A DNA stretch of 12,184 nt from the NCBI RefSeq assembly GCF_018420025.1, contig NZ_JAEDAM010000031.1, forward strand, positions 1 through 12,184, read 5' to 3'. The DNA is from Candidatus Vampirococcus lugosii (GTDB lineage: Bacteria > Patescibacteriota > Gracilibacteria > Absconditabacterales > Absconditicoccaceae). Positions 1-12,184 of this stretch are shown here, piece after piece. The position numbers were made by a program, and so were the translations under genes. The first letter of the stretch is position 1; each line of letters begins with the position of its first letter. The notes under the pieces were generated by a model. The model was not told the origin of the DNA. It did no database searches and saw only the letters and a list, made by a program, of their open reading frames with translations.

Positions 1-1068
1 ACTAGATGGACTACACCAAGTGATGAAAATGATGAACAAGATGAAAATAATGAAAATGATGAACAAGATGAAAATGATGAACAAGATGAAAATAATGAAA
101 GTGATGAACAAGATGAAAATAATGAAAGTGATGAACAAGATGAAAATAATGAAAATGATGAACAAGATAAAAATAATGAAAATGATGAACAAGAGGAAAA
201 TAATGGACAAAAAAAATTATCGGAATATATAAAAGAACTTGAAGAACAGATACAATCTGAACAAAAATTGATAAATAGAACAAATATTACAATTAATACT
301 CCTATATTTGAAACTAATAATGTACAAAATACAGTAAGTAAATTAAATAATTTAATTTTACAAAAAGTAGAGAATAAGAAAATATCTTGAAAAGATTTGG
401 AAAATTTTGTAGAAAATTATAATAACTTTTTAATGATTGTAAAGATTATTAGAGATATTAGTGATAATAATGAAATTAGAAAAGAATGAAAAACTTATGT
501 TTCAAATATTATATGAATATTAAATTCATATGAAGAAATAATTCCTTCTAGTGAATTACAAGATAAAGAGTTTGAAATGGCTTTATCTTTCTTAAAAAGA
601 TATTGATTGACAAAATATAATAGTGTAGATGAATTTAGACCAAATGATGAGCTTACAAGACAAGAATCAGCAAGTTTTTTTGCTTGATTTGCAAAAGAAG
701 TTTTATGAATACAAGAAACCAATAATAATTGTTCATTTATTGATATAGATAATGCAGATTATACTTTAGTACCAAAAATTAATTCTGTATGTGCTATGTG
801 AATTATGTGAATGAATAATAATGAGTTTAGACCATTTGAAATTATAAGTAGGGCAGAGTCGTTTACAGTATTGGTAAGATCTATATTATGAGATAATTTA
901 GATGAAACTGTAAATCCTCGGTGGGATAATTACTTCAAAGTAGCTCAAGAATTAAATCTTACTAATGAAGTTAGTACTTGGGATCAAGATAGACCTATAA
1001 CTAGATATGAAATGTCTTTAATTTTATATAGAGCTTGGTTAGGTTCCGAAGAAACATTATCTCAATAA
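1..1068 (+). CDS. Cell-surface protein, 5'-truncated by the window edge: acidic D/E/N/Q tandem-repeat region followed by three SLH-like repeats (translation table 25)
   Basis: Frame 1 is open from nt 1 to TAA at 1066-1068 once TGA is read as sense (9 in-frame TGA, the first at 388-390). There are three ~55-aa repeats containing FRPNDELTRQE (~634), FRPFEIISRAE (~826) and DRPITRYE (~988). With TGA=Gly these are preceded by RY-G-LTKY and AM-G-IM-G-M. This gives the G-[IL]-x-G ... F-x-P-x3-[IL]-[TS]-R-x-E pattern of S-layer-homology domains. TGG is used for Trp (PRWDN, STWDQ, RAWLG). Confidence 0.75.
22..210 (+). repeat. In-frame tandem repeat, 27-nt unit GATGAACAAGATGAAAATAATGAAART (DEQDENNE[N/S]), about 6-7 copies including one 18-nt short copy
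   Basis: Read directly: GATGAACAA recurs at 31, 58, 76, 103, 130, 157 and 184, with near-identical spacers. The last two copies are degenerate (GATAAA, GAGGAA). The repeat encodes a low-complexity acidic stretch of the surface protein. Confidence 0.9.
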
Positions 1069-1089
1069 TAATAATTATTTATATAAAAT

Positions 1090-1125
1090 AAAAAACTATT
1101 TCCTTCAATGGAGATAGTTTTTTTA
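1090..1125. terminator. Bidirectional intrinsic terminator between convergent genes
   Basis: 10-bp stem, 1094-1103 (aactatttcc) pairing with 1110-1119 (ggagatagtt), containing one G-U pair. The loop is 1104-1109. An A-run (1090-1095) lies on the left and a T-run (1118-1124) on the right, so either strand reads hairpin plus U-tract. It sits between the + gene stop (1068) and the minus gene stop (1140). Confidence 0.7.
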
Positions 1126-1139
1126 TCAAAAATATTTTA

Positions 1140-3881
1140 TTATCTTCATTCTATTACTACTGGTTTTTTACAATTTCAATGATCACTTTTGTCTCATGTA
1201 CAATTATATCTATTTTTTACAATAGGAGAAACTTTATTTATATTATAATTATCATTTTCATCTACATAAGAATTTCTAAGAAAATTTATATCATATCTTT
1301 GAGAAACTTTGTATGCAAATGCATTATTAAATAAGAAATTATCTTGATGTATTCTCCTACCTCATGGTAAAACAACTTCTTCATTTGTATTTATTATTCA
1401 TCATCAATATGTATTTCTAGAAATTATATTTCATTTTATATACAATTGTTGTTTCAATTTTTCATCATTTAAATTATATTGCATTATATCGCTTATTGTT
1501 CAATTCATATTATCTATAGAAAGTATACTTCAATCTGTTGTTATATTAGTTTGTATAGTATCTACTTCATTTCATATATATATATTTCAATTAATATTCC
1601 ATCCATTTGTTTTATTAAATTTTATTGTTCCATCATTACTAAATGAATAAATTTGCAAAAATCAATCATTCTTTATTTTTATATCTGATGATATTATCAT
1701 TTTACAATCTATAAATACTAATTTATTTTTTCATTCAACATCTGAAATTAAATCTATTATTATTTCATTTCAATTACAATTATATATTTCATTTCAAACA
1801 TTTCTTATTTCTTTAATTTCATTTCTATTTAATTCTTTTTTTCATTTTAAATTTCTAATAACTTCCTTTCTTTTTTTATTTATATAATTAGAAAACGAAA
1901 TTCAAGATCATCATATTTGATTTTCATTTCAAAATGCTAATATTTCTTCTATATTATATCATCTATTTAAAATTCATGTAATATCTATTCAAAAAAACTT
2001 TCATGCTATATTTAATCTATTTCAATCTATAGATGTATTTGGTATTAATTTAACTTTTTTTCAATCTATTTCGTATTGATAATGTCAATTATAGTATTCC
2101 ACTTTATTTAAATTTGTTCATGAAATTACTATTTTTCAATCTATTTTTGAATTTCAAAATCAAGAAAAAACTTCTCATTCTTCAAATACACAATCAAAAC
2201 ATCAAACTGTATCTCATACAATATCAAAATCTTCCAAATTAACATTATTTATAAGTCAAGTGTATACAAGACTTATTTCATTTTCTTCGTTGATCATAAT
2301 TCAATCTCAAACATTTATTCACTGAAATCATATACTTACTATATTTTGAAAATTTAATCATTTAATTTTTGTTCATATTGATATATTATCATAATTTATA
2401 TCAAGTTGAGCTGATCTTACTGGTTTATAACTTCAAATTCTAATTTTAATTTCTCATTCTTCGTCTGTGCTAGTATCAAATATGTCATAATTAAATCATG
2501 TTGTGTAATTTGTATTATCTGTTTCATCTAAATCAAAAAAATTTCAAGTATCTTCTATTTTTATATTTCATAAATCAAAATTAGGTACTGTATATCAATA
2601 TTGATTTAACATTTTAATATTAATATTACATTTATCTCATTTAGCTTTGGCATTACTACAGTTTGGATTTAAATAATATATTGATTCTTTTATTTGTTTA
2701 TCTGGATCTAATTTAATTTTACTAGTTTCAAGACTATTTGAATTTATATTTAGATATTGTCAAAAATCATATTTTCAATCTATTTTGTAATAAATATATA
2801 TTCAATTTTCATCTACTTTTTTTCAAAAAGGCATTAGTTTTATTTTAAATGGATATTTGCTATTAACATTATCTCAATTTATTATATTATAACTTATTCA
2901 TTGACTTGATTCATAATTTAAATTTCATATTCATACAAAATTACTTATTCAAGTAGTTTCAAATTCTGCATCAATATTTTCTCATATATATTTATTTCAA
3001 ACTCCACTTAATTTTAAATCAATATTTCAAGGAATTTCAAGATTTATATTTCAAGTAAGAACTTTATCAGTATCTTTATCGTATATTATATTTATTCATA
3101 AATTATTTTGACCAGCTATAATTCAAGATATTTTTCAATTTTTTCAATTTTTTCAATTTATTTCACTTAATTTATATCAATTTACTTTAGTTCCATCATT
3201 TTTATCAACTAAATTTTTTTCATTTAGTTTATGATCATTAATTAATATAGAGTTTATTAATTTTCAATTATTATCTCTAAGTATTATTTTATAATTTAAT
3301 TTATCTGAAAAATTTGCTTTTGCATTTCATATAAATATTAATTTACTTTTATTTTCATCAATTAAATCATAAACAATTTTTCTTGATTGAATATCTGTTT
3401 TTACTAATTCCCATTGCCACATTCATAATCAATTAGAATAAGATTGTCCAGTATGATAATATAATCATTCATCACCTGGATTATTATATCTATTATCATT
3501 TTGATCAGAAAAAACATAATAATTATCGCTAATATGTTCAAAATCTATCCGTCATCAAGCTGCTAATTTTGCCATTCAACGATATTTTCAATCTCAACAA
3601 GTATATGTTCATTTATCTCAATATTGAAAATATACTTCTCATATTTTATTTGTATATCAAGTTCATATTACTGGAAAACAATGATGTTCACCTCAATCTT
3701 TTCAATCTATAATTTTAGGATTATTTTTATCAACTTTAACTTCATAAACTATTCATTCTTTTTCTCATTCAAAATTAAGTTCATCAGTGTCTTTTATTGA
3801 AGCAAAGTTAAAAAAATTTGATTCTCAATATGTTTTGATTATAGATGTTATTATTATAAATAATATTATTATCTTTTTCAT
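1140..3881 (-). CDS. Large secreted or surface protein (913 aa), Gly/Asn/Ile-rich, N-terminal signal or anchor, function unknown (table 25)
   Basis: The minus-strand frame has no TAA or TAG from ATG (3881-3879) to TAA (1142-1140). I checked this line by line as the absence of in-frame tta/cta on the + strand. The N-terminus MKKIIILFIIITSIIKTYG is a hydrophobic signal or anchor. I hand-counted about 88 in-frame TGA and about 9 GGN. The sequence has beta-rich repetitive motifs (GNINLEIPGNIDLKLSG, TYGGGIINTN). I recognise no catalytic motif. Confidence 0.8.
3132..3158 (-). repeat. Perfect 9-nt x3 in-frame tandem repeat (ttttcaatt on the + strand) encoding (N-G-K)x3 with UGA-Gly
   Basis: Read directly: ttttcaatt occurs at 3132-3140, 3141-3149 and 3150-3158. 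On the coding strand this is AAT TGA AAA x3, inside the 913-aa ORF. Confidence 0.85.
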
Positions 3882-3919
3882 TTTTATATATTTTTATTTT
3901 TAAAATATAATTACCTAAT

Positions 3920-3948
3920 ATTATATATTAATAATACTTATTTGTCAA
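3920..3948 (-). promoter_or_regulatory. Consensus sigma70-type promoter for the 913-aa ORF
   Basis: On the minus strand, TTGACA (3948-3943) is followed by a 17-nt spacer and TATAAT (3925-3920). This lies 39 nt upstream of the ATG at 3881, inside the 115-nt intergenic gap. Caveat: TATAAT-like hexamers are frequent in DNA this AT-rich. Confidence 0.55.
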
Positions 3949-3996
3949 TATAATATATATAAATTATATTTTAATATTTAGAAAAATTTTATATTT

Positions 3997-4467
3997 TTAT
4001 TTTAGTATACTACTAATATATGCCAATCATAATGCATCTGCTGCATCATCATATTCTGGAATTTTTTCCAAAGAAAATATTTTCATTACAAAATTTTGTA
4101 CTGTAATTTTATTTGCTTTAGTATTTCAAGTTATATATTTTTTAAGTTCAATAGGTGATAATTCATAAATTTTAATATTTTTTTTAATTAACAAAACATA
4201 TAAAACAGCTCTTACTCAATATACAAATTCTGCATTTGCTTGATTTTTATTTGTAAAAAAAAGTTTTTCCATTCATGCTTTTTGTATATTATATTGATTT
4301 ATTATTTTTTCAAAAAAATTTTGTATTTCAAATATTTTTTGAAAATAATCTTCTCTATTTGGATTTTTTTTTTCTTGTAAAAGTATTCAAGCATCAATTA
4401 TATTTAGATTTTTATCTATTATTGCATATCATAATTTTCTAGCACCAGGATCTATTCATATAAACAT
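3997..4467 (-). CDS. ruvC: Crossover junction endodeoxyribonuclease RuvC (156 aa, table 25)
   Basis: The hand translation reads MFIGIDPGARKLGYAIIDKNLNIIDAGIL ... KYITGNTKANKITVQNFV ... EYDDAADALGLAYI. This matches the RuvC signature GIDPG...G, the K-x-VTG-x-G-x-A-x-K segment and the C-terminal D-x-x-DA-L-A motif. Seven in-frame TGA all fall at Gly-compatible positions, including the first G of GIDPG (4456-4458). Confidence 0.9.
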
Positions 4468-4492
4468 AATTTTTTTTTAAAATAAAAAGTTA

Positions 4493-5362
4493 TTACTTAA
4501 TATTATTTTTTTGTTCCAAACATTTATATATATGGTATATATATACAAAAAAATATACAGAAAAAATATAAAATAATATATTATTTAAAATAATACTAAT
4601 TATATTTGGTAAAATATCACTAAATGATGATAATAATCAACTAATAACTAATGCTAAAATACCAATAAGTAATAAATAAATAAATATTGTCCAAAAATTT
4701 CATTTAGTAAATTCTTTACTCATAGATATAGCTTTTTTTCAAAAAATATCTTCATTTAATACAAGCCAAGGAAGAGGAAGTAACTTTATATAAATTACCA
4801 TCATATATATATATTGAAATATAAATATTAATCAAAATATTGGTATTAATAATAATAAGTTTTTATTTGTTATGGCTCATAAAAAATCTGATGAAAAACC
4901 TGGTCAAAAGTATATATATAATATATAAAGAAATAATACTATTAATAGTATTAAACTTGGTAAAAACATAGTATACAAAAATAGAAAAAATGTTTTTATA
5001 ATTTTCCATATATTTCAATATATATAAGAAATTCATTTTAGTATAGTAAATTCTTTATTTTTCAAAATATTATTTATTCAATACAAAAGTAAAAAAAATA
5101 AAAATATTCAAATAATTAAAGATAATAAGTACAAAAAAGTAAGTATATATAAATAGATATTAAAGTTATCATTTCATGTATATACTTTACCAAAAATTAA
5201 TCGAAAAAATGCAAATATAAAAAGATAATTAATAATTGTATTAATAAACATAAAAAGTAAAACAATTAAAATTGATTTATTTTTTAAAACTTGTAAACTT
5301 GAATAATAAGATTTTACAAAAATTTGTTGTAAATCTATTTTATTGTATGTTTCTTCTGTCAT
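4493..5362 (-). CDS. Polytopic integral membrane protein (289 aa), family not assigned (table 25)
   Basis: The track ORF 5174..5362 is only its N-terminal 62 aa, ending at a TGA. Reading through, the same frame stays free of TAA and TAG down to TAA at 4495-4493. The protein has multiple long hydrophobic segments (ILIVLLFMFINTIINYLFIFAFF, IYLYILTFLYLLSLIIGIFLFFLLLYG, LYTMFLPSLILLIVLFLYILYIYF, FWTIFIYLLLIGILALVISGLL). Its stop lies 25 nt upstream of ruvC, so the two are probably co-transcribed. Confidence 0.75.
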
Positions 5363-5393
5363 TATATATATTTTATATAATATAAATTAATTA

Positions 5394-5421
5394 ATTATAA
5401 ATTTTTTTTAGTAAAAAACAA
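5394..5421 (-). promoter_or_regulatory. Candidate sigma70-type promoter for the membrane-protein/ruvC pair
   Basis: On the minus strand, TTGTTT (5421-5416) is followed by a 16-nt spacer and TATAAT (5399-5394). This lies 32 nt upstream of the ATG at 5362. The support is weak because of the AT-rich background. Confidence 0.35.
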
Positions 5422-5430
5422 TAACTTTTT

Positions 5431-6630
5431 TTAATTAATAAATTCATCAATTGCATCAAAAAATTTATCTATATCATCAAAATTATTATAAACATATAAA
5501 CTAACTCTGCAACTACTCAAATATCACATAAATTTTAAATATGGATGAGCACAATGTCAACCACATCTTATACAAATATTTTTCATAGCCATAAATTCAC
5601 CAAATTTTATTGCTGAGAAATTTCATTTTAATATAAAACTAAAAACTCATAATCTATTTTTGGTATTATTTTTTCAGATTAATTCAATTTTATCGGATCT
5701 TTTTAAAAATCAATCAAGCATATATTTAGTTAATTCTTGTTCTTTTTCCCAAATTTTTTTGAAACCTCATATTGATTCGATATATTCAAAAGCTTTTAAT
5801 AAACTTATAGCACCAGAAATATTTGGAGTTCAAGCTTCAAAAGCTTGTATTCAATTAAGAAAAGATACGGATTGTAAAGAAACATCTTTAATATTTCATC
5901 AACCACCAAAACAAGGATTCATTTTTTTTAATAAATTTTTATTTGCTACCAAAACTCAAATTCAAGTATTTGCCATCAACTTATGACCAGTAAAGATAAG
6001 AAAATCAGCATTTATTTTTTGAAAATCTACTGGAAAATTTGGAACTGCTTGTGATCAATCTACTACAAATATAGTGTCATCTCTAAGTAAATTTCAAATA
6101 TTTTCCAAATCAAATATAGTTCAAGTTAAATTTGAAACATAAGTAAAAGAAACTATTTTTACATTTTTATCATATTTTTGTTCAAAATCTTGTAAATCTA
6201 TATCTCCATTTTTATCTATATTTACATAATCAATTTCAATATCAATTTTATCTTTTAAAATAAGCCAAGGCACTATATTTGAATGATGTTCAGCAATACT
6301 AAGTAATATTTTATCTCAATTTTTTAAAATATTTGAAAAATATAAACTCATAGATAAAATATTGAAAGCATATGTAGAATTGTAAGTATAAATTATTTGT
6401 GATGATTTTACATTAAGATTTTTGGCAATTATAGATTTGGATTTATCATACAAATCTTCAGAAAAATCTGATAAATTATACATTCATCTATGAATATTTG
6501 CATAATATTTTGATAAATGTTCACTAATTCAATCTATTACAAATTTAGGTTTTTGGCTACTTGAGCAAGTATCAAGATATACTAAAGTTTTGTCGTCAAA
6601 AACTGGAAAATCTGATTTTATATCAAACAT
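5431..6630 (-). CDS. sufS: Cysteine desulfurase, class-V aminotransferase, SufS/CsdA-type (399 aa, table 25)
   Basis: The hand translation shows these motifs: MFDIKSDFPVF...VYLDTCSSSQKP; ANIHRG; SIAEHHSNIVPW; VDGSQAVPNFPVDF; FTGHKL (PLP-lysine motif); NTGIGVL; FGGGGNI; FEAGTPNISGAISL; and IRCGGHCAHPYL (active-site Cys loop, group II type). The frame is open from ATG 6630 to TAA 5433-5431. Confidence 0.9.
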
Positions 6631-6649
6631 TAAAATAATGTAAAAAAAT

Positions 6650-7357
6650 AAATTATTAAGATTTATTATGTATATCAATAATTTGTTGACATACAATTTC
6701 TATCGGGTCAAAACTAGGAATTTTTTCAAAAAAACTATCTTTTCAGAAAATATAAGAAATTTCTGTACAAGCATAAATTACAGAATCAAATCAATATTTT
6801 TTTTGTAGTTTTTCAGAATTTAAAAAACTTTTATAAAAAAAATTTATAGCTTCAAAACTTTTTCAAGCTTTTACTGAATAAATAGCTTTCATAATAATTT
6901 CTTGATTTTGTTTTGTAAGTTTTATTAAAGATATATCAAATTTTTGACAATATTTATCATATACTCAAGCTTGAAAAGTTCAATTTGTTCATAATAAAAG
7001 AGGCTTTTTTAATCATTTAGATTTAAGATATTTAACAGTTTCATTAACTATATTTATTAAATTTGCTTTTTTTACAATAAACTCATCAAAAAAATGATGA
7101 GCAGTATTACAAGCTATCACAATATGTGTACATCATTGTTCTTCCAAACTTTTTATTCATTCATTAATTTTTGTAAGTGGAGAAATTCAATTATTTAAAA
7201 TAGCACAAGTTCTATCTGGTATATCAGGTTTAGTATATAAAATAGTTTCAATATTTTCTAAATCATTTTTTGCAAAAGTTTTTTCTATTAATCTTTGATT
7301 AAAATACAATCAAGCAATAGCTCACATTCATCATAATATTCACAATTTAACAAACAT
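6650..7357 (-). CDS. Asp/Glu/hydantoin racemase family protein, aspartate-racemase-like (235 aa, table 25)
   Basis: The N-terminus is MFVKLGILGGMGAIAGLYF, the GGMG motif, in which four of the five Gly codons are TGA. Both catalytic-Cys motifs are present: IVIACNTAHHF and IYACTEIS. The ATG at 7357 lies 3 nt after the stop of the upstream dipeptidase gene. Confidence 0.85.
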
Positions 7358-7360
7358 ATT

Positions 7361-8347
7361 TTATAATATTTTTTTTATAAATTCAAAAGCATTAGTATAT
7401 AAAATTTTTTCTATTTCAGAAACAGTAAATCAATATTCTATCATTTTATCGGCAAGAATTTGAAAATCACTTGATTGCTGAAATTCATTTATTAAATCAT
7501 TTGAAGTAGTTCAGTCAAAATCAGATCAAATAGCAATATAATTTATTCAAACTAAATCATAAACATATTTAATAGATTTCAAAAAATCATCAAGTTTATT
7601 AGATCATAAATATTTTGGATGTGGCATAAGTCATATTAATCATCAAGATTTTGCAATAGCTTTTATTTGTTCATCATCAATATTTCTATTATTTTGTATC
7701 AAACAATTAACTTGAGTATGTGAAATAAATAAAGGTAATTTGGTATAATTTGCTATTTCCCAAAAAGATTTTTTTCATATATGTGCTAAATCAAGTATTA
7801 TATTATTATTTTCAATATAATCAATAACTTTTTTTCAAATTTTTGTAAGGTTTCAATTTCATCAAGCTCATCAAGCTAAACAATTATCAAAATTCCAAGT
7901 AAGAGCAATAGATCTAACTCATCTTTGATAATAATAATTTAAAATTTTCAAATCTGATTCTTGATCTATAAAATAAAATCATTCCATATGTTTTATTAAT
8001 CATATATTTTCATCAAGATTAACTTTATCTAAATCATTTTTATTTTTGATAGCAAAAATTTTTCAATTACTATTTTTCAAAATATAATCATAATAATCAA
8101 GTTGCTGTTTTATTAAATATCTTCTAATATTTATATCTTGATTAATTTCATTTGGCATTAAACAAGATGCACCAAATACTAATTTTACATTTCATTTTTG
8201 CAATCTAGGTAAATCAACTTGATTATTTACATTTAATCAATAATAATTTCGTCATTCATTTATTCAATTTTCAACAAAAAAATTTTTGTGTGATAATATT
8301 AAAGAATTGTCAGCCCAATCGTTATGTAAATCTATAATTTTGTACAT
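7361..8347 (-). CDS. Membrane-dipeptidase family protein, peptidase M19 (328 aa, table 25)
   Basis: The hand translation shows these motifs: MYKIIDLHNDWAD (metal-binding H-x-D); KHMEGFYF; YYQRGVRSIALTWNFDN; IILDLAHIGKKSF; PLFISHTQVNCL..NNRNIDDEQIKAIAKSGGLIGL; and INYIAIGSDFDGT. Together these are the M19 (renal-dipeptidase-like) signature set. The frame is free of TAA and TAG from 8347 to TAA at 7363-7361. Confidence 0.85.
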
Positions 8348-8370
8348 TACAATATATTTTTAATATAAAT

Positions 8371-9747
8371 TTAAAAATTTTTTTTCAAAAAAGATAATTG
8401 TTTTTTAAGATCAGACATATTAATACTTCACATTTTTTCAAAAATTTCATTTCTTTCAGATTCAGAATATGAATATAAATCAAATTGAGAAAAGTAATTT
8501 GAAGTATTTCATATATGATCAAATAAATAAGAAGAACAAAAAGTAGATTTTATTAATTTTATAAGTTCTTTATTTTGTGATTTATATTTTTCTATTAGAG
8601 AAGAATATTTTGCTATAACATATTTTATATCAGTAATTCATTGACTTTTAAGTTCTTTTATTTGTATTCATTTTTCAATTGAAATTTGTGATAATTTTTC
8701 ATTATTTACAAATAAATCATTTATTGCAGTTCTAATATTTTTATCTAAACTCAATAATTTAATATTAGCAGTAGGAACAATATTAAAATTTAATGTAGCT
8801 GGAATTTTTAAATCACTTTTTTCCAATAATATTGAATATAATTCATTATAAATTTTTCAAAAATTTTCTATATAATTAACCATATCAGGTCAAGAACAAT
8901 GATAAACTGTATCTTTATTATATTTTATAGAATCTATAATTCAAAAAAGTATAGTATTTATTATATTACTTAGTATAGGTCACTTAATTTCATCTCTTAT
9001 TTCATTAAAATCGGAATCAAGTGGATTTTTTATTACAATATCACTCATAGCATTAGTAGATTTTTCAAATCTTTCAATTAATTCAGATTTTTTTATTTTC
9101 AAACTTGATCAATAAGAATTTGTATTTGAATCAAAATACATATAATCATCATCTATATATTTTACAGTAAGTATTTCTCAATTTGGTAATATATATCTAT
9201 CAAAAATAAAGTTTAATTTATCATAATCTCAAGATTTTTCTATATTTTCAAATAAAGTAGAAATAACTTTTAATACTATTTCTTTATTCTCATCAAGCCA
9301 TTGAGAAAAAGTTATTATTTCTGTTTCAGGAAAAGTTTTTTTAGTAACTTCATAATGAAAAGCTCAAATTCAATCAGAATTAGAAACTATATTAAATATA
9401 TCTGAATCTAGATGATGTGGTAGATTTAATGATTTAGGTAGTCTAGAAAGAATACTAATTTTATCTTGTTTCTTTTCAAATATTTCAATTTCTTCTCAAT
9501 TATAAATTATACTTCAAGGTTTATAATTTTTATCTTTAGACAAAATTGTTCTATCATATAAAACACTTGGTAAACCAAAATGCATTATTGATAAATTTGA
9601 TGGATATTGATTTCCAATATGTGCACTTCTAATTACAGGAAATCATTGATCAAATAATTCTCTCAATTGATATAAATTAATATTTTCACAAATTTGTATA
9701 TTAAAATTATTTCATATTCATTCTTTATTTTCTATATTTGAATTCAT
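8371..9747 (-). CDS. Hypothetical protein (458 aa), no recognisable family (table 25)
   Basis: The frame has no TAA or TAG from ATG (9747-9745) to TAA (8373-8371), and about 17 in-frame TGA. The sequence begins MNSNIENKEGIGNNFNIQICENINLYQLRELFDQGFPVIRSAHIGNQYPSNL. There is no TM segment or signal peptide. The C-terminal third looks helical or coiled (EKLSQISIEKGIQIKELKSQ...KYKSQNKELIKLIK). Its stop lies 23 nt upstream of the dipeptidase gene. Confidence 0.7.
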
Positions 9748-9768
9748 AATATTTAGGTTTAATGAATT

Positions 9769-10137
9769 AAATTATCTTGATAATAAGCTCAGTTTTGTAT
9801 TAGCAAAATTTGTCTGACTTTGCTTATAGCAAAGATTTAGCACTACCTTTACTTAATTGTAAAGTAAGCTTGCATCAGCTAGGGTTTACCACTGGTTTAC
9901 AAATCTTGTAAACTCAGGAGAAGTAGCACTCAATTAATTTTGAATAACATCTTCACATTGCACCTTTCATTTAGTATTTAAACTAAACTAGTTTCTGTCT
10001 CTGTGGCACTTTCCTTTGTCTTGACTATCAATCAAGTATTCCAATTGTCTTTAACAATTAGCCTTTTTGCGATGCTGAGACTTTCCTCTCATAAATATAT
10101 TTTTATATATTTACAAGTATTGCTTGTCAAGATTATT
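9769..10137 (-). ncRNA. rnpB: RNase P RNA, bacterial type A (ends approximate, +/-10 nt)
   Basis: The minus strand carries the universal conserved regions:
- GAGAGGAAAGUCUCAGC (10090-10074), which matches GAGGAAAGUCCGGGC.
- GGAAAGUGCCACAGAGACAGAAAC.
- AUGAAAGGUGCAAUGUGAAG.
- GGUAAACCCUAGCUGAUGCAAG.
- ACAAAACUGAGCUUAU near 9783-9798.
P4 pairing is CUCAG with CUGAG. The P1 candidate is AAUAAUCUUGA (10137-10127) pairing with UCAAGAUAAUU (9780-9770). This segment is locally GC-richer than the flanks and contains no ORF. Confidence 0.9.
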
Positions 10138-10213
10138 TATATATAATTAAAATAATATTATTTTCAATAGAATTTATATTTTTTTTAAAATTATTTTGAA
10201 TTTTGTAGTATTA

Positions 10214-11038
10214 TTAAAATAATGTATCAAAAGGATTCTCTATTTTATCTAAACTTGGATTTGTAATATGAGTATATATTTGAGTAGTTTTTATATTACT
10301 GTGTCAAAGTAGTTCTTGAATATATTTTATATCTACTCAATTTTCAAGTAAATGTGTAGCATATGAATGTCTAAGTGTATGAGGAGTAACATTTTTCATA
10401 ATTCATGCTTTTTTAGATGCATTTTTTACAATATTTTGTATACTTTTGTCGCTATATATATAATTTCATTCTCAGGGGAACAATAATTCATTTGGTTTAT
10501 ATTTTTTATAATATATTTTTAATAATTTTAATATTTCTTTTGAAAGAGGAATTGTTCTATCTTTTGCTCATTTTGATTTTTTAATATATATTTTCATTCT
10601 TTTTGAATCTATATTTTCTATTTTTAGATGTATAAGTTCTGATAATCTAAGTCATCAAGAATATATAAGAGATACTATAGTTTTATGTTTTAAATTATCT
10701 ATACTTTCAATAAGTTTTTTAACTTCTTCTTTTGATAATACATTTGGAATTTTATTTTCTTTTCCTCTAGGTTTAATATAACTAAAATCATATTTTTTTC
10801 AGAGAAATTCATTATAATATAGTGTAATAGCTCAAATAATTTGTTTTTGAAATGAAATTGAAATACCTTTTTTAACTTGGATATTGACATAATTATAAAT
10901 TTCTTTTTTTGTTAATTTTGTATTGTCTAAATAATGATTAAATAATTTCATTAAAATGCTTGTATAAGTTTTTATAGTATTTTTGGAATATTTTTTTATA
11001 TGTAACCATTCACTAAAATTATTAATTTCTTCTCACAT
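10214..11038 (-). CDS. Tyrosine recombinase / integrase, XerC/XerD-like (274 aa, table 25)
   Basis: The hand translation shows an N-terminal SAM-like domain (FSEWLHIKKYSKNTIKTYTSIL...QKQIIGAITLYYNEF). The catalytic motifs are LIYSGGLRLSELIHLKIENID (Arg I), KGAKDRTIPL, and [38 protein letters not shown] (H-x-x-R, LLGH and the nucleophile Tyr). The second codon is TGA. The track ORF 10699..10890 is an off-frame artefact inside this gene. Confidence 0.9.
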
Positions 11039-11081
11039 AAATATTCGTATAACAATCTAAAATAGATTAAAAAAACGATCT

Positions 11082-11107
11082 TATTGATTTTTAGAGAGAA
11101 ATCAATA
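11082..11107. repeat. Inverted repeat (9-bp arms, 8-nt loop) in the divergent recombinase/lipoprotein intergenic region; a second small palindrome lies at 11054-11068
   Basis: Read directly: tattgattt (11082-11090) pairs with aaatcaata (11099-11107). In addition, aatcta-aaa-tagatt forms a palindrome at 11054-11068. Confidence 0.6.
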
Positions 11108-11150
11108 TATTTTTGTTATGTGAAATAATTTATTTTTTAATTTTACTACT

Positions 11151-11396
11151 ATGAAAAAAACTATGGTAATTTTATTTCTTGCTCTATTAATAATTACAGG
11201 CTGTTCATCTCAAAAAAATATTACTAATAAAAATCAAGATTTATCTCCTGCTGAGCAATATTGTTTATCAAAAGGTGGAAAAATTGAGGTTCATAAACCT
11301 GATGAAAAGGAAAATAAAGTATGTTTTATAAATGATGGTCTTGATGGTATCAGGTGTAATGTTGATTTATTTTTTGAGAAGAAGTGTGGTCATTAA
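11151..11396 (+). CDS. Small lipoprotein with DUF333-like (COG3042 'putative hemolysin') domain, 81 aa, no TGA
   Basis: This is a standard-code ORF from the track. The signal peptide plus lipobox is MKKTMVILFLALLIITG|C. The mature part, SPAEQYCLSKGGKIEV...KVCFINDG...RCNVDLFFEKKCG, matches the DUF333 pattern N-P-A-x-x-Y-C-x-x-x-G-G ... C-x-x-x-D-G ... C-x-x-W-x-x-F-x-x-x-C. All 6 Gly are GGN. Confidence 0.8.
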   Translation: MKKTMVILFLALLIITGCSSQKNITNKNQDLSPAEQYCLSKGGKIEVHKPDEKENKVCFINDGLDGIRCNVDLFFEKKCGH

Positions 11397-11444
11397 AAAA
11401 TAAAAAAATGCTTTTGTATAAGGAGTAAAAATATCTTTTTAAAA

Positions 11445-11635
11445 CTCAAGGGGGCGTTGCACTTATTTTTTCTTCCGTTTCTCTACAGAAAAAACACCCT
11501 CGCCTAACACAGTATATCTAGCTCTCTCGTGCCCTCGCTCGACCCATATTTGCTTCCATAAATTAAATTGATAAAATGGAATGGAAGCAAACATCAGATA
11601 TACTGAAACGTTGTGTGAAATAAGTTTTGAGCCCT
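11445..11635 (+). other. GC-enriched non-coding element built of nested perfect inverted repeats (structured RNA, or a MITE- or recombination-site-like DNA element); identity unknown
   Basis: Four nested helices were read directly:
- 11445-11449 with 11627-11631 (5 bp).
- 11461-11468 with 11618-11625 (8 bp).
- 11510-11519 with 11596-11605 (10 bp).
- 11549-11559 with 11581-11591 (11 bp, with a 21-nt AT loop).
The element also has a CCCTCGC direct repeat at 11497-11503 and 11532-11538. No ORF exists on either strand under table 11 or table 25. The strand assignment is arbitrary. Confidence 0.4.
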
Positions 11636-11654
11636 AAATCGGAAAGTTTATAAT
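11627..11654 (+). promoter_or_regulatory. Candidate sigma70-type promoter for the HIT gene
   Basis: TTGAGC (11627-11632) is followed by a 16-nt spacer and TATAAT (11649-11654). This lies 25 nt upstream of the ATG at 11680. The -35 element overlaps the outer arm of the nested-repeat element. Confidence 0.35.
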
Positions 11655-11679
11655 AATTTAAATCTCTTAATTTTTTATT

Positions 11680-12177
11680 ATGGCAAACTACAAGTCATCA
11701 ACAGACGAAGGAAAATGTATCTTTTGTGAAATTATAAAAGGCAATATCCAAACTCCTGGAATTTTTTGGGAAGATAACGAGTTTATGGCATTTTTATCAA
11801 CATGGCCAAGTGTTGAAGGTTTTACTGTTGTAGTTCCAAAAGAACATTATGGCAGCGATTGTTTAGCACTGCCAGATGATGTTTTGCAAAGATTTATTTT
11901 AGCAACGAAAAAAGTTTCCAATGTTCTTTTGAAAAATTTTGATGATGTTGGTAGGGTTGGTCTAATTATGGAAGGAACTGGTGTTGACCATGCCCACATA
12001 AAACTCGTTCCAATGCACGGAACAGGTCATATGAAAAAAGGAGTTTGGAAACAATATCTTAGCGGAAGGTCAGATTATTTTGAAACATATGAAGGATATA
12101 TAATTTCAACAGATGGTCCAAAAGCAAATCCAGAAAAAATAAGAGATTTAGCAAAAAAATTAAGAGATGCTCAATAA
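11680..12177 (+). CDS. HIT-family (histidine triad) protein, 165 aa, no TGA
   Basis: This is a standard-code ORF from the track. It has the N-terminal C-I-F-C-E-I motif and a triad region GVDHAHIKLVP, which is an H-x-H-x-K variant of H-x-H-x-H-x-x. All 15 Gly are GGN and its 3 Trp are TGG. GC is visibly higher than in the left 11 kb: individual 60-nt lines run 30-45%. Confidence 0.9.
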   Translation: MANYKSSTDEGKCIFCEIIKGNIQTPGIFWEDNEFMAFLSTWPSVEGFTVVVPKEHYGSDCLALPDDVLQRFILATKKVSNVLLKNFDDVGRVGLIMEGTGVDHAHIKLVPMHGTGHMKKGVWKQYLSGRSDYFETYEGYIISTDGPKANPEKIRDLAKKLRDAQ

Positions 12178-12184
12178 CGGGCTC

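Follow-up and report, generated by a model that had tools for sequence, protein, structure and literature searches.

UGA is read as glycine over 11 kb of a Candidatus Vampirococcus lugosii contig whose right end carries two TGA-free genes resembling a gene-cassette pair

Candidatus Vampirococcus lugosii is a predatory bacterium. It belongs to the Absconditabacteria (Moreira et al. 2021, PMC8080830). The same paper states a UGA-to-glycine reassignment for this genome, reports genes called by Prodigal with table 25 and refers for this code to Campbell et al. 2013, Hanke et al. 2014 and others. We analyzed 12,184 nucleotides of the genome (the complete contig NZ_JAEDAM010000031.1, positions 1 to 12,184; hereafter the window). 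For positions 1-11038, an original prediction made from the sequence alone had proposed that UGA is a sense codon for glycine. Our results support this reading. In this contig of the Absconditabacteria (SR1; Candidate Phyla Radiation, CPR), UGA almost certainly specifies glycine (NCBI translation table 25), which leaves UAA and UAG as the only terminators. The finding is real and was correctly interpreted, but it is already known. The novelty implied by the prediction could not be upheld, because the reassignment has been published for this very genome. In scientific terms, the code finding does not go beyond Moreira et al. 2021 and previous SR1 and Gracilibacteria papers. Its value is practical only: a recoded genome can be detected by reading raw sequence, and the DNA must be annotated with table 25.

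The window shares with the described UGA-glycine code of SR1 and Gracilibacteria the in-frame UGA at conserved glycines, the retention of UGG for tryptophan, a very AT-rich reduced genome and the membership in the Absconditabacteria. No difference was found; UAA is the sole stop used in the window. The other code to be compared is table 4, in which UGA specifies tryptophan and which is used by Mycoplasma, Spiroplasma and some other AT-rich reduced genomes. Like table 4 in the Mollicutes and others, the window has UGA as a sense codon, an AT-rich reduced genome and open frames. In contrast, glycine and not tryptophan is inserted.

The G+C content of the window is 21%. Under table 11, only four open reading frames (ORFs) of at least 80 aa were found in its whole length. 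The prediction had described only short antisense or off-frame artefacts in the table-11 track between 1.1 and 10.2 kb, and a single ORF of at least 80 aa was found there (5660-5986, plus strand), with nothing longer than 108 aa open. When only TAA and TAG were treated as stops, one partial plus-strand ORF and eight minus-strand ORFs were obtained. If the first ATG is taken as the start, gene length on the minus strand ranges over 471-2742 nt, and the six gaps measure 115, 25, 68, 25, 3 and 23 nt. The predicted set of frames, with gaps of 3-115 nt, was thereby reproduced exactly. The nine genes are as follows.

1-1068, plus strand: 3' part of a gene running off the left end of the window, with an acidic D/E/N/Q repeat and then an S-layer-homology (SLH) region; 9 TGA, 2 GGN, stop TAA; Pfam SLH 22.1 bits with glycine versus 16.3 with tryptophan.
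1140-3881, minus strand: 913-aa protein of unassigned function with a hydrophobic N-terminus; 88 TGA, 9 GGN, 3 TGG; no Pfam family above threshold.
3997-4467, minus strand: RuvC Holliday-junction resolvase; 7 TGA, 1 GGN; Pfam RuvC match.
4493-5362, minus strand: 289-aa multi-pass membrane protein, weakly DUF975-like; 11 TGA, 3 GGN.
5431-6630, minus strand: SufS-type cysteine desulfurase (class-V aminotransferase); 19 TGA, 8 GGN; Pfam Aminotran_5.
6656-7357, minus strand: Asp/Glu racemase family protein, whose best solved relatives are aspartate racemases; 15 TGA, 0 GGN; Pfam Asp_Glu_race.
7361-8347, minus strand: M19 membrane dipeptidase; 23 TGA, 1 GGN; Pfam Peptidase_M19.
8371-9747, minus strand: 458-aa protein of unassigned function; 18 TGA, 2 GGN.
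10214-11038, minus strand: XerA-type tyrosine recombinase, 274 aa; 11 TGA, 2 GGN, the native recoded vocabulary; NCBIfam NF040815.

Together, these genes contain 201 in-frame TGA and 28 GGN codons and no internal TAA or TAG over ~3400 codons. Because the same frames hold no other stop over this length, the number of in-frame TGA codons is far beyond chance. Among all glycine codons of positions 1-11038, 88% are TGA. TAA terminates all 11 genes of the window; UAG is unused and UGA is never a terminator. TGG is rare, with 0-4 codons per gene across the window. For the 913-codon gene, a hand count of about 88 TGA against about 9 GGN had been given; the exact numbers are the same, and its glycine content under table 25 is 10.6%. 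The individual TGA codons quoted in the prediction (4456-4458, 10337-10339, 10304-10306, 6484-6486, 5830-5832, 7322-7342 and 7511-7528) are all correct and stand in the peptide contexts claimed, as do the TGG codons at 3411-3419 and 8315-8317. The extent of the signal could be refined: UGA serves as a sense codon up to position 11038, where the signal stops, and the genes within 11151-12177 contain no TGA.

The near-empty table-11 track would also be seen if the organism used the standard code and TGA interrupted decayed genes, either in a run of pseudogenes or through a sequencing or assembly artefact. However, 201 TGA codons stand against not one TAA or TAG within the same frames. The TGA codons fall on invariant catalytic or structural glycines, and the Pfam matches are full-length. 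An overlapping contig from a second assembly, Logan contig L001 (SRR13241709_698), shares 6973 nt with the window and reaches 175 nt past its end (to ~12359); the sole differences between the two are two adjacent bases at 5379-5380. A relative (L007, see below) shows the same TGA pattern. Decay or error is thus vanishingly improbable, and pseudogenes or errors were rejected on the absence of in-frame TAA and TAG.

Next, the nine genes were translated with glycine, tryptophan or X at TGA, and the translations were compared by Pfam bit scores. Glycine scored higher in all five families for which the prediction had proposed this comparison. RuvC reached 87.9 bits with glycine versus 69.0 with tryptophan, Aminotran_5 347.6 versus 289.3, Asp_Glu_race 67.6 versus 45.1, Peptidase_M19 216.7 versus 142.3 and Phage_integrase 153.2 versus 124.3. 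The advantage of glycine over tryptophan is therefore 19-74 bits.

The M19 dipeptidase was analyzed column by column. The query was masked as X at TGA, two tryptophan-rich mistranslated matches were dropped, and 61 standard-code homologues were aligned. Glycine makes up 53% of the residues at the 23 TGA columns, compared with a background of 9%. Four of these columns are glycine in 61 of 61 homologues and one in 60 of 61. Tryptophan is outside the six commonest residues at these columns, each of which reaches at least 3.6%. A hidden Markov model was built from the 61 homologues alone and scored with all 20 amino acids at TGA. Glycine gave 270 bits, serine as the next best 227 bits and tryptophan 191 bits. 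Glycine thus leads the next best residue by 43 bits and tryptophan, which ranks 18th of 20, by 79 bits.

Alignments with solved structures gave the same picture. At the seven TGA columns of RuvC, glycine is found in four (E. coli) and three (T. thermophilus) cases; the remainder are Ala, Gln or Arg, and tryptophan does not occur. SufS was aligned with four homologues from the PDB, and glycine occupies 43 of 76 TGA cells and tryptophan none. The GGN columns of SufS are likewise glycine in these homologues, and the NCBI protein for this gene (P0064) has glycine at the TGA-coded positions. The motifs singled out in the prediction were inspected with X-masked queries. Glycine stands in the solved-structure homologues at NIHR-x and FEA-x-TPN of SufS, at x-IDPG of RuvC, at HLLEN-x and ELL-x-HS of the recombinase and at x-IL-xx-M-x of the racemase, where IGILGGMG of PDB entry 1jfl aligns with the masked block. 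The claim that tryptophan is still written TGG also holds: the TGG-coded tryptophan of HHSNIVPW in SufS is tryptophan in four of four PDB homologues. Pfam scores in the five named families, M19 columns and structure alignments thus all favour glycine over tryptophan.

Under table 4, with UGA as tryptophan, the frames are equally open, and an AT-rich, reduced genome would suit this code. At least one large public catalogue of proteins, compiled from Logan assemblies, has translated the genes in this way. Its protein P0001, the M19 dipeptidase of the window, carries tryptophan at every TGA and consists of 7.9% Trp and 0.3% Gly. Both P0001 and P0002, the latter from a relative, follow table 4, with 5-8% Trp where glycine belongs, whereas the NCBI entries use table 25. 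P0002 is probably likewise mistranslated with tryptophan at every TGA. As P0001 was translated with tryptophan, mistranslated copies of these proteins are in public circulation. Against table 4 stand the lower scores in all five Pfam families, the low rank of tryptophan in the M19 profile and its absence from the six residues seen most often where standard-code homologues align with TGA. In addition, these proteins would have to contain 7-10% Trp and less than 1% Gly, and TGG is kept at the conserved tryptophan of SufS. Tryptophan as the meaning of UGA therefore has next to no probability. Table 4 was rejected on the Pfam scores and on the content of the TGA columns.

Nothing in the window contradicts glycine as the meaning of UGA, but two observations limit the case. 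Within any single family, homologues have a residue other than glycine at around half of the TGA columns, and a tRNA scan of the window found no tRNA gene, so that the decoding tRNA is unseen there. Other residues are to be expected at non-conserved positions, where glycine is replaced mainly by Ala, Ser, Asp or Asn. In this genome of ~21% G+C, TGA as the A-ending codon has largely replaced GGN, and the low G+C content accounts in this way for its share among the glycine codons of positions 1-11038. According to the literature on the clade, rather than to the window itself, UGA would be decoded by a tRNA-Gly with anticodon UCA, and release factor 2 would be absent.

The placement of the DNA in the Gracilibacteria and Absconditabacteria lineages, as made in the prediction, agrees with NCBI, where the SufS (P0064) and HIT (P0184) proteins of the window are named Candidatus Vampirococcus lugosii. 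Apart from the masked positions, P0064 is identical to the SufS query. The SufS relatives that come next in similarity carry the names Gracilibacteria, Absconditabacteria or SR1. The closest relative found, L007 (NCBI GCA_964483725.1, contig CAZACQ010000002.1), has a SufS protein 68% identical to that of the window and a G+C content of 25%. A 21-kb stretch of L007 contains 313 TGA versus 55 GGN codons, so that TGA makes up 85% of its glycine codons. Extreme TGA usage is therefore a lineage trait and not a peculiarity of the window, and the idea that a share of 88% is exceptional was rejected. Gene order around SufS differs between L007 and the window.

Beyond position 11038 the composition changes. 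This part of the window was compared with integron gene cassettes; cassettes common to bacteria and archaea have been reported (Ghaly et al. 2022, PMC9668308). Its features are listed below.

11115-11121, plus strand: GTTATGT core-like site, putative left edge of a first cassette, 77 nt from the recombinase start codon.
11151-11396, plus strand: 81-aa DUF333 lipoprotein-like ORF; 0 TGA, 6 GGN, 27% G+C; Pfam DUF333 25.1 bits (cut-off 25).
11502-11616, plus strand: attC-like hairpin between the DUF333 and HIT ORFs, GCCTAAC-a-CAGTATATCT ... AGATATACTG-aaac-GTTGTGT, folded as DNA.
11610-12184, plus strand, continuing to ~12270 via L001: HIT-family gene module with its ORF at 11680-12177 (165 aa); 0 TGA, 15 GGN, 34% G+C.

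G+C rises from ~20% to ~32% at this point. The DUF333 and HIT genes together contain no TGA and 21 GGN codons. At the native TGA:GGN ratio, the chance of this is below 1e-18 (0.12^21).

Proteins from many CPR bacteria and DPANN archaea share 80-93% identity with the HIT protein. The DNA forms a discrete module of ~660 nt that matches contigs L009, L006, L005, L034 and L011 at 86-92% identity. It is also present on L001 (6399-7060), and the related loci are L005, L006, L009, L011, L034 and L037. The carriers are metagenome-assembled genomes that bear the names of CPR bacteria and of a spirochaete (Exilispira), and close relatives of the protein are also named from DPANN archaea. The called genes of L005 and L006 contain no in-frame TGA, and these contigs therefore use the standard code. 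In most copies, identity starts at a GTT-type core and the sequences 5' of the core are unrelated. This core reads GTTGTGT in the window and GTTAGAT, GTTAAGC, GTTATGT or GTTATAT elsewhere. The module keeps ~33% G+C across hosts of 22-45% G+C. Drift of the module toward the AT content of its host was looked for as a sign of residence, and none was seen; such a composition would be expected after recent arrival but is no proof of residence. A 17-nt inverted repeat, AAATAAGTTTTGAGCCC / GGGCTCAAAACTTACTT, flanks the HIT ORF at 11618-11634 and 12179-12195 (L001 6407-6423 and 6968-6984). Its arms are 94% complementary, with 14 nt perfect, and the second arm lies beyond the window end.

The hairpin at 11502-11616 has a DNA folding energy of -16 to -18 kcal/mol, with stems of 10 bp and 14 bp. 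The same layout was found at five more sites: L009 540-620 and 1256-1355, L006 ~1327-1405, L034 ~966-1060 and L037 1474-1608. It consists of xxxTAAC, a spacer of 1-3 nt, a 10-nt stem whose core is ATAT, a loop, the complementary stem, a spacer of 4-6 nt and [G/A]TTRYRY. The inner stems differ in sequence between sites yet remain complementary, i.e. they co-vary. GAAATAA comes after the core at 11115-11121, just as it does where the HIT module begins, and the two sites form a direct repeat (GTTATGTGAAATAATTT versus GTTGTGTGAAATAAGTT). In 7 of 32 loci, compared with 0.35 expected, the core of such a hairpin lies 50-80 nt upstream of the HIT start; among them are HIT copies of an archaeon and of other phyla with no more than 52-65% identity. 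In contrast, a loose search for attC-like patterns was not discriminating in AT-rich DNA (206 matches versus ~185 in shuffled sequences), so that only the position-specific test was significant.

By anatomy, the hairpins and cores appear to match gene cassettes of the integron type, and DUF333 and HIT look like a recently imported cassette pair. As in integron cassettes and clusters of attC sites lacking integron integrases (CALINs; including PMC9668308), a promoter-proximal array of small same-strand ORFs is seen, each followed by an imperfect hairpin resembling RYYYAAC ... GTTRRRY. Module boundaries lie at a G/TT-type core, the module occurs in bacteria and DPANN archaea, and a tyrosine recombinase is divergent to the array. 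Integron cassettes are bounded by attC hairpins (R''/L''...L'/R') with the crossover between G and TT. The hairpins seen here are candidates for such sites by layout, fold and co-variation. They differ in that the cores GTTGTGT and GTTATGT deviate from GTTRRRY, and the hairpin of the HIT module itself is incomplete on the available sequence. A further difference is the recombinase, which is XerA-type and lacks the IntI-specific domain.

The recombinase matches NF040815 (recomb_XerA_Arch) with 231.9 bits (cut-off 220) over profile positions 1-259 of 263, and its best PDB matches are XerA chains. The integron integrase model TIGR02249 gave 207 bits against a cut-off of 265 and matched in two stretches. 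Compared with IntI4 (chain 2a3v), ~43 residues are missing between two matched stretches. The additional domain specific to IntI sits around patch III (PMC9668308), and the gap probably corresponds to this domain. Judged from its sequence, the enzyme is thus classified as XerA-type and not as IntI. On the standard-code contig L006, a recombinase with 41% identity (318-1127) stands divergently beside the same HIT module. Among 34 metagenome loci with relatives of the recombinase (27-49% identity), no excess of hairpins was found on the divergent side, which limits the adjacency of recombinase and hairpin to the window and L006. An integrase beside HIT was found in 0 of 31 GTDB genome loci.

A different origin of the right end was considered. 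Positions 11039-12184 might have been joined to the contig as a chimera during whole-genome amplification or assembly, in which case the apparent end of the recoding signal would be an artefact. The genome was obtained from micromanipulated cells of single consortia amplified by multiple displacement amplification (MDA) or multiple annealing and looping-based amplification cycles (MALBAC) (PMC8080830). The jump in G+C, the complete switch from TGA to GGN and the 88-92% identity of the HIT DNA to standard-code genomes, with no drift to host AT, would all be in line with such a join. The only second assembly, L001, was probably built from the same reads. However, the recoded recombinase has its start codon just 77 nt from a cassette-type core (GTTATGT), and the unrelated L006 repeats the arrangement of a divergent recombinase and a HIT module. 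Moreover, a foreign composition is what would be expected of a recently captured cassette. We therefore regard a chimeric join as unlikely, and as less likely than the recent acquisition of the right-end genes from a foreign source.

A more far-reaching proposal is that the recoded genome maintains a working cassette platform. It would consist of the XerA-type recombinase without the IntI-specific domain, divergent to two attC-bounded, TGA-free cassettes (DUF333 and HIT). At least one of these would be recently acquired, because its DNA is ~90% identical to standard-code CPR copies. We consider this proposal speculative and rather improbable. The cassette reading in general is limited by a recombinase that is not IntI, by a loose hairpin pattern that is not enriched and by an arrangement repeated only in L006. 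Should the recombinase itself insert these cassettes, the CPR would possess a minimal integron-like system. It would also offer a UGA-glycine organism a route to import genes across the code barrier, because only TGA-free genes terminated by TAA can pass intact.

Moreira et al. 2021 (PMC8080830) raised the question of whether a recoded genome cuts these bacteria off from horizontal transfer. The right end bears on it, as two TGA-free genes, one of them near-identical to standard-code copies, adjoin a native recoded recombinase. The supplements of the paper were searched for HIT, DUF333, tRNA-Gly and prfB, and nothing was found. The cassette pair is the only feature of the window for which we found no earlier description, and it is presented here as a lead.

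Two further features of the window were noted. The apparent gap of ~440 nt between the 458-aa gene and the recombinase gene is occupied by an RNA gene.

9768-10135, minus strand: RNase P RNA (bacterial class A); Rfam RF00010, 70.1 bits, E=6e-20, model positions 1-367 of 367.

Despite covering the full model, this RNA scores below the Rfam gathering score of 100, and default Rfam annotation would therefore miss it. At the left end of the window, the partial ORF begins with a long acidic repeat of DEQDENNEN/S units (window 1-200), which precedes the SLH-like region. This acidic-repeat, SLH-like protein may be related to the fibrous cell surface described in the genome paper (PMC8080830).

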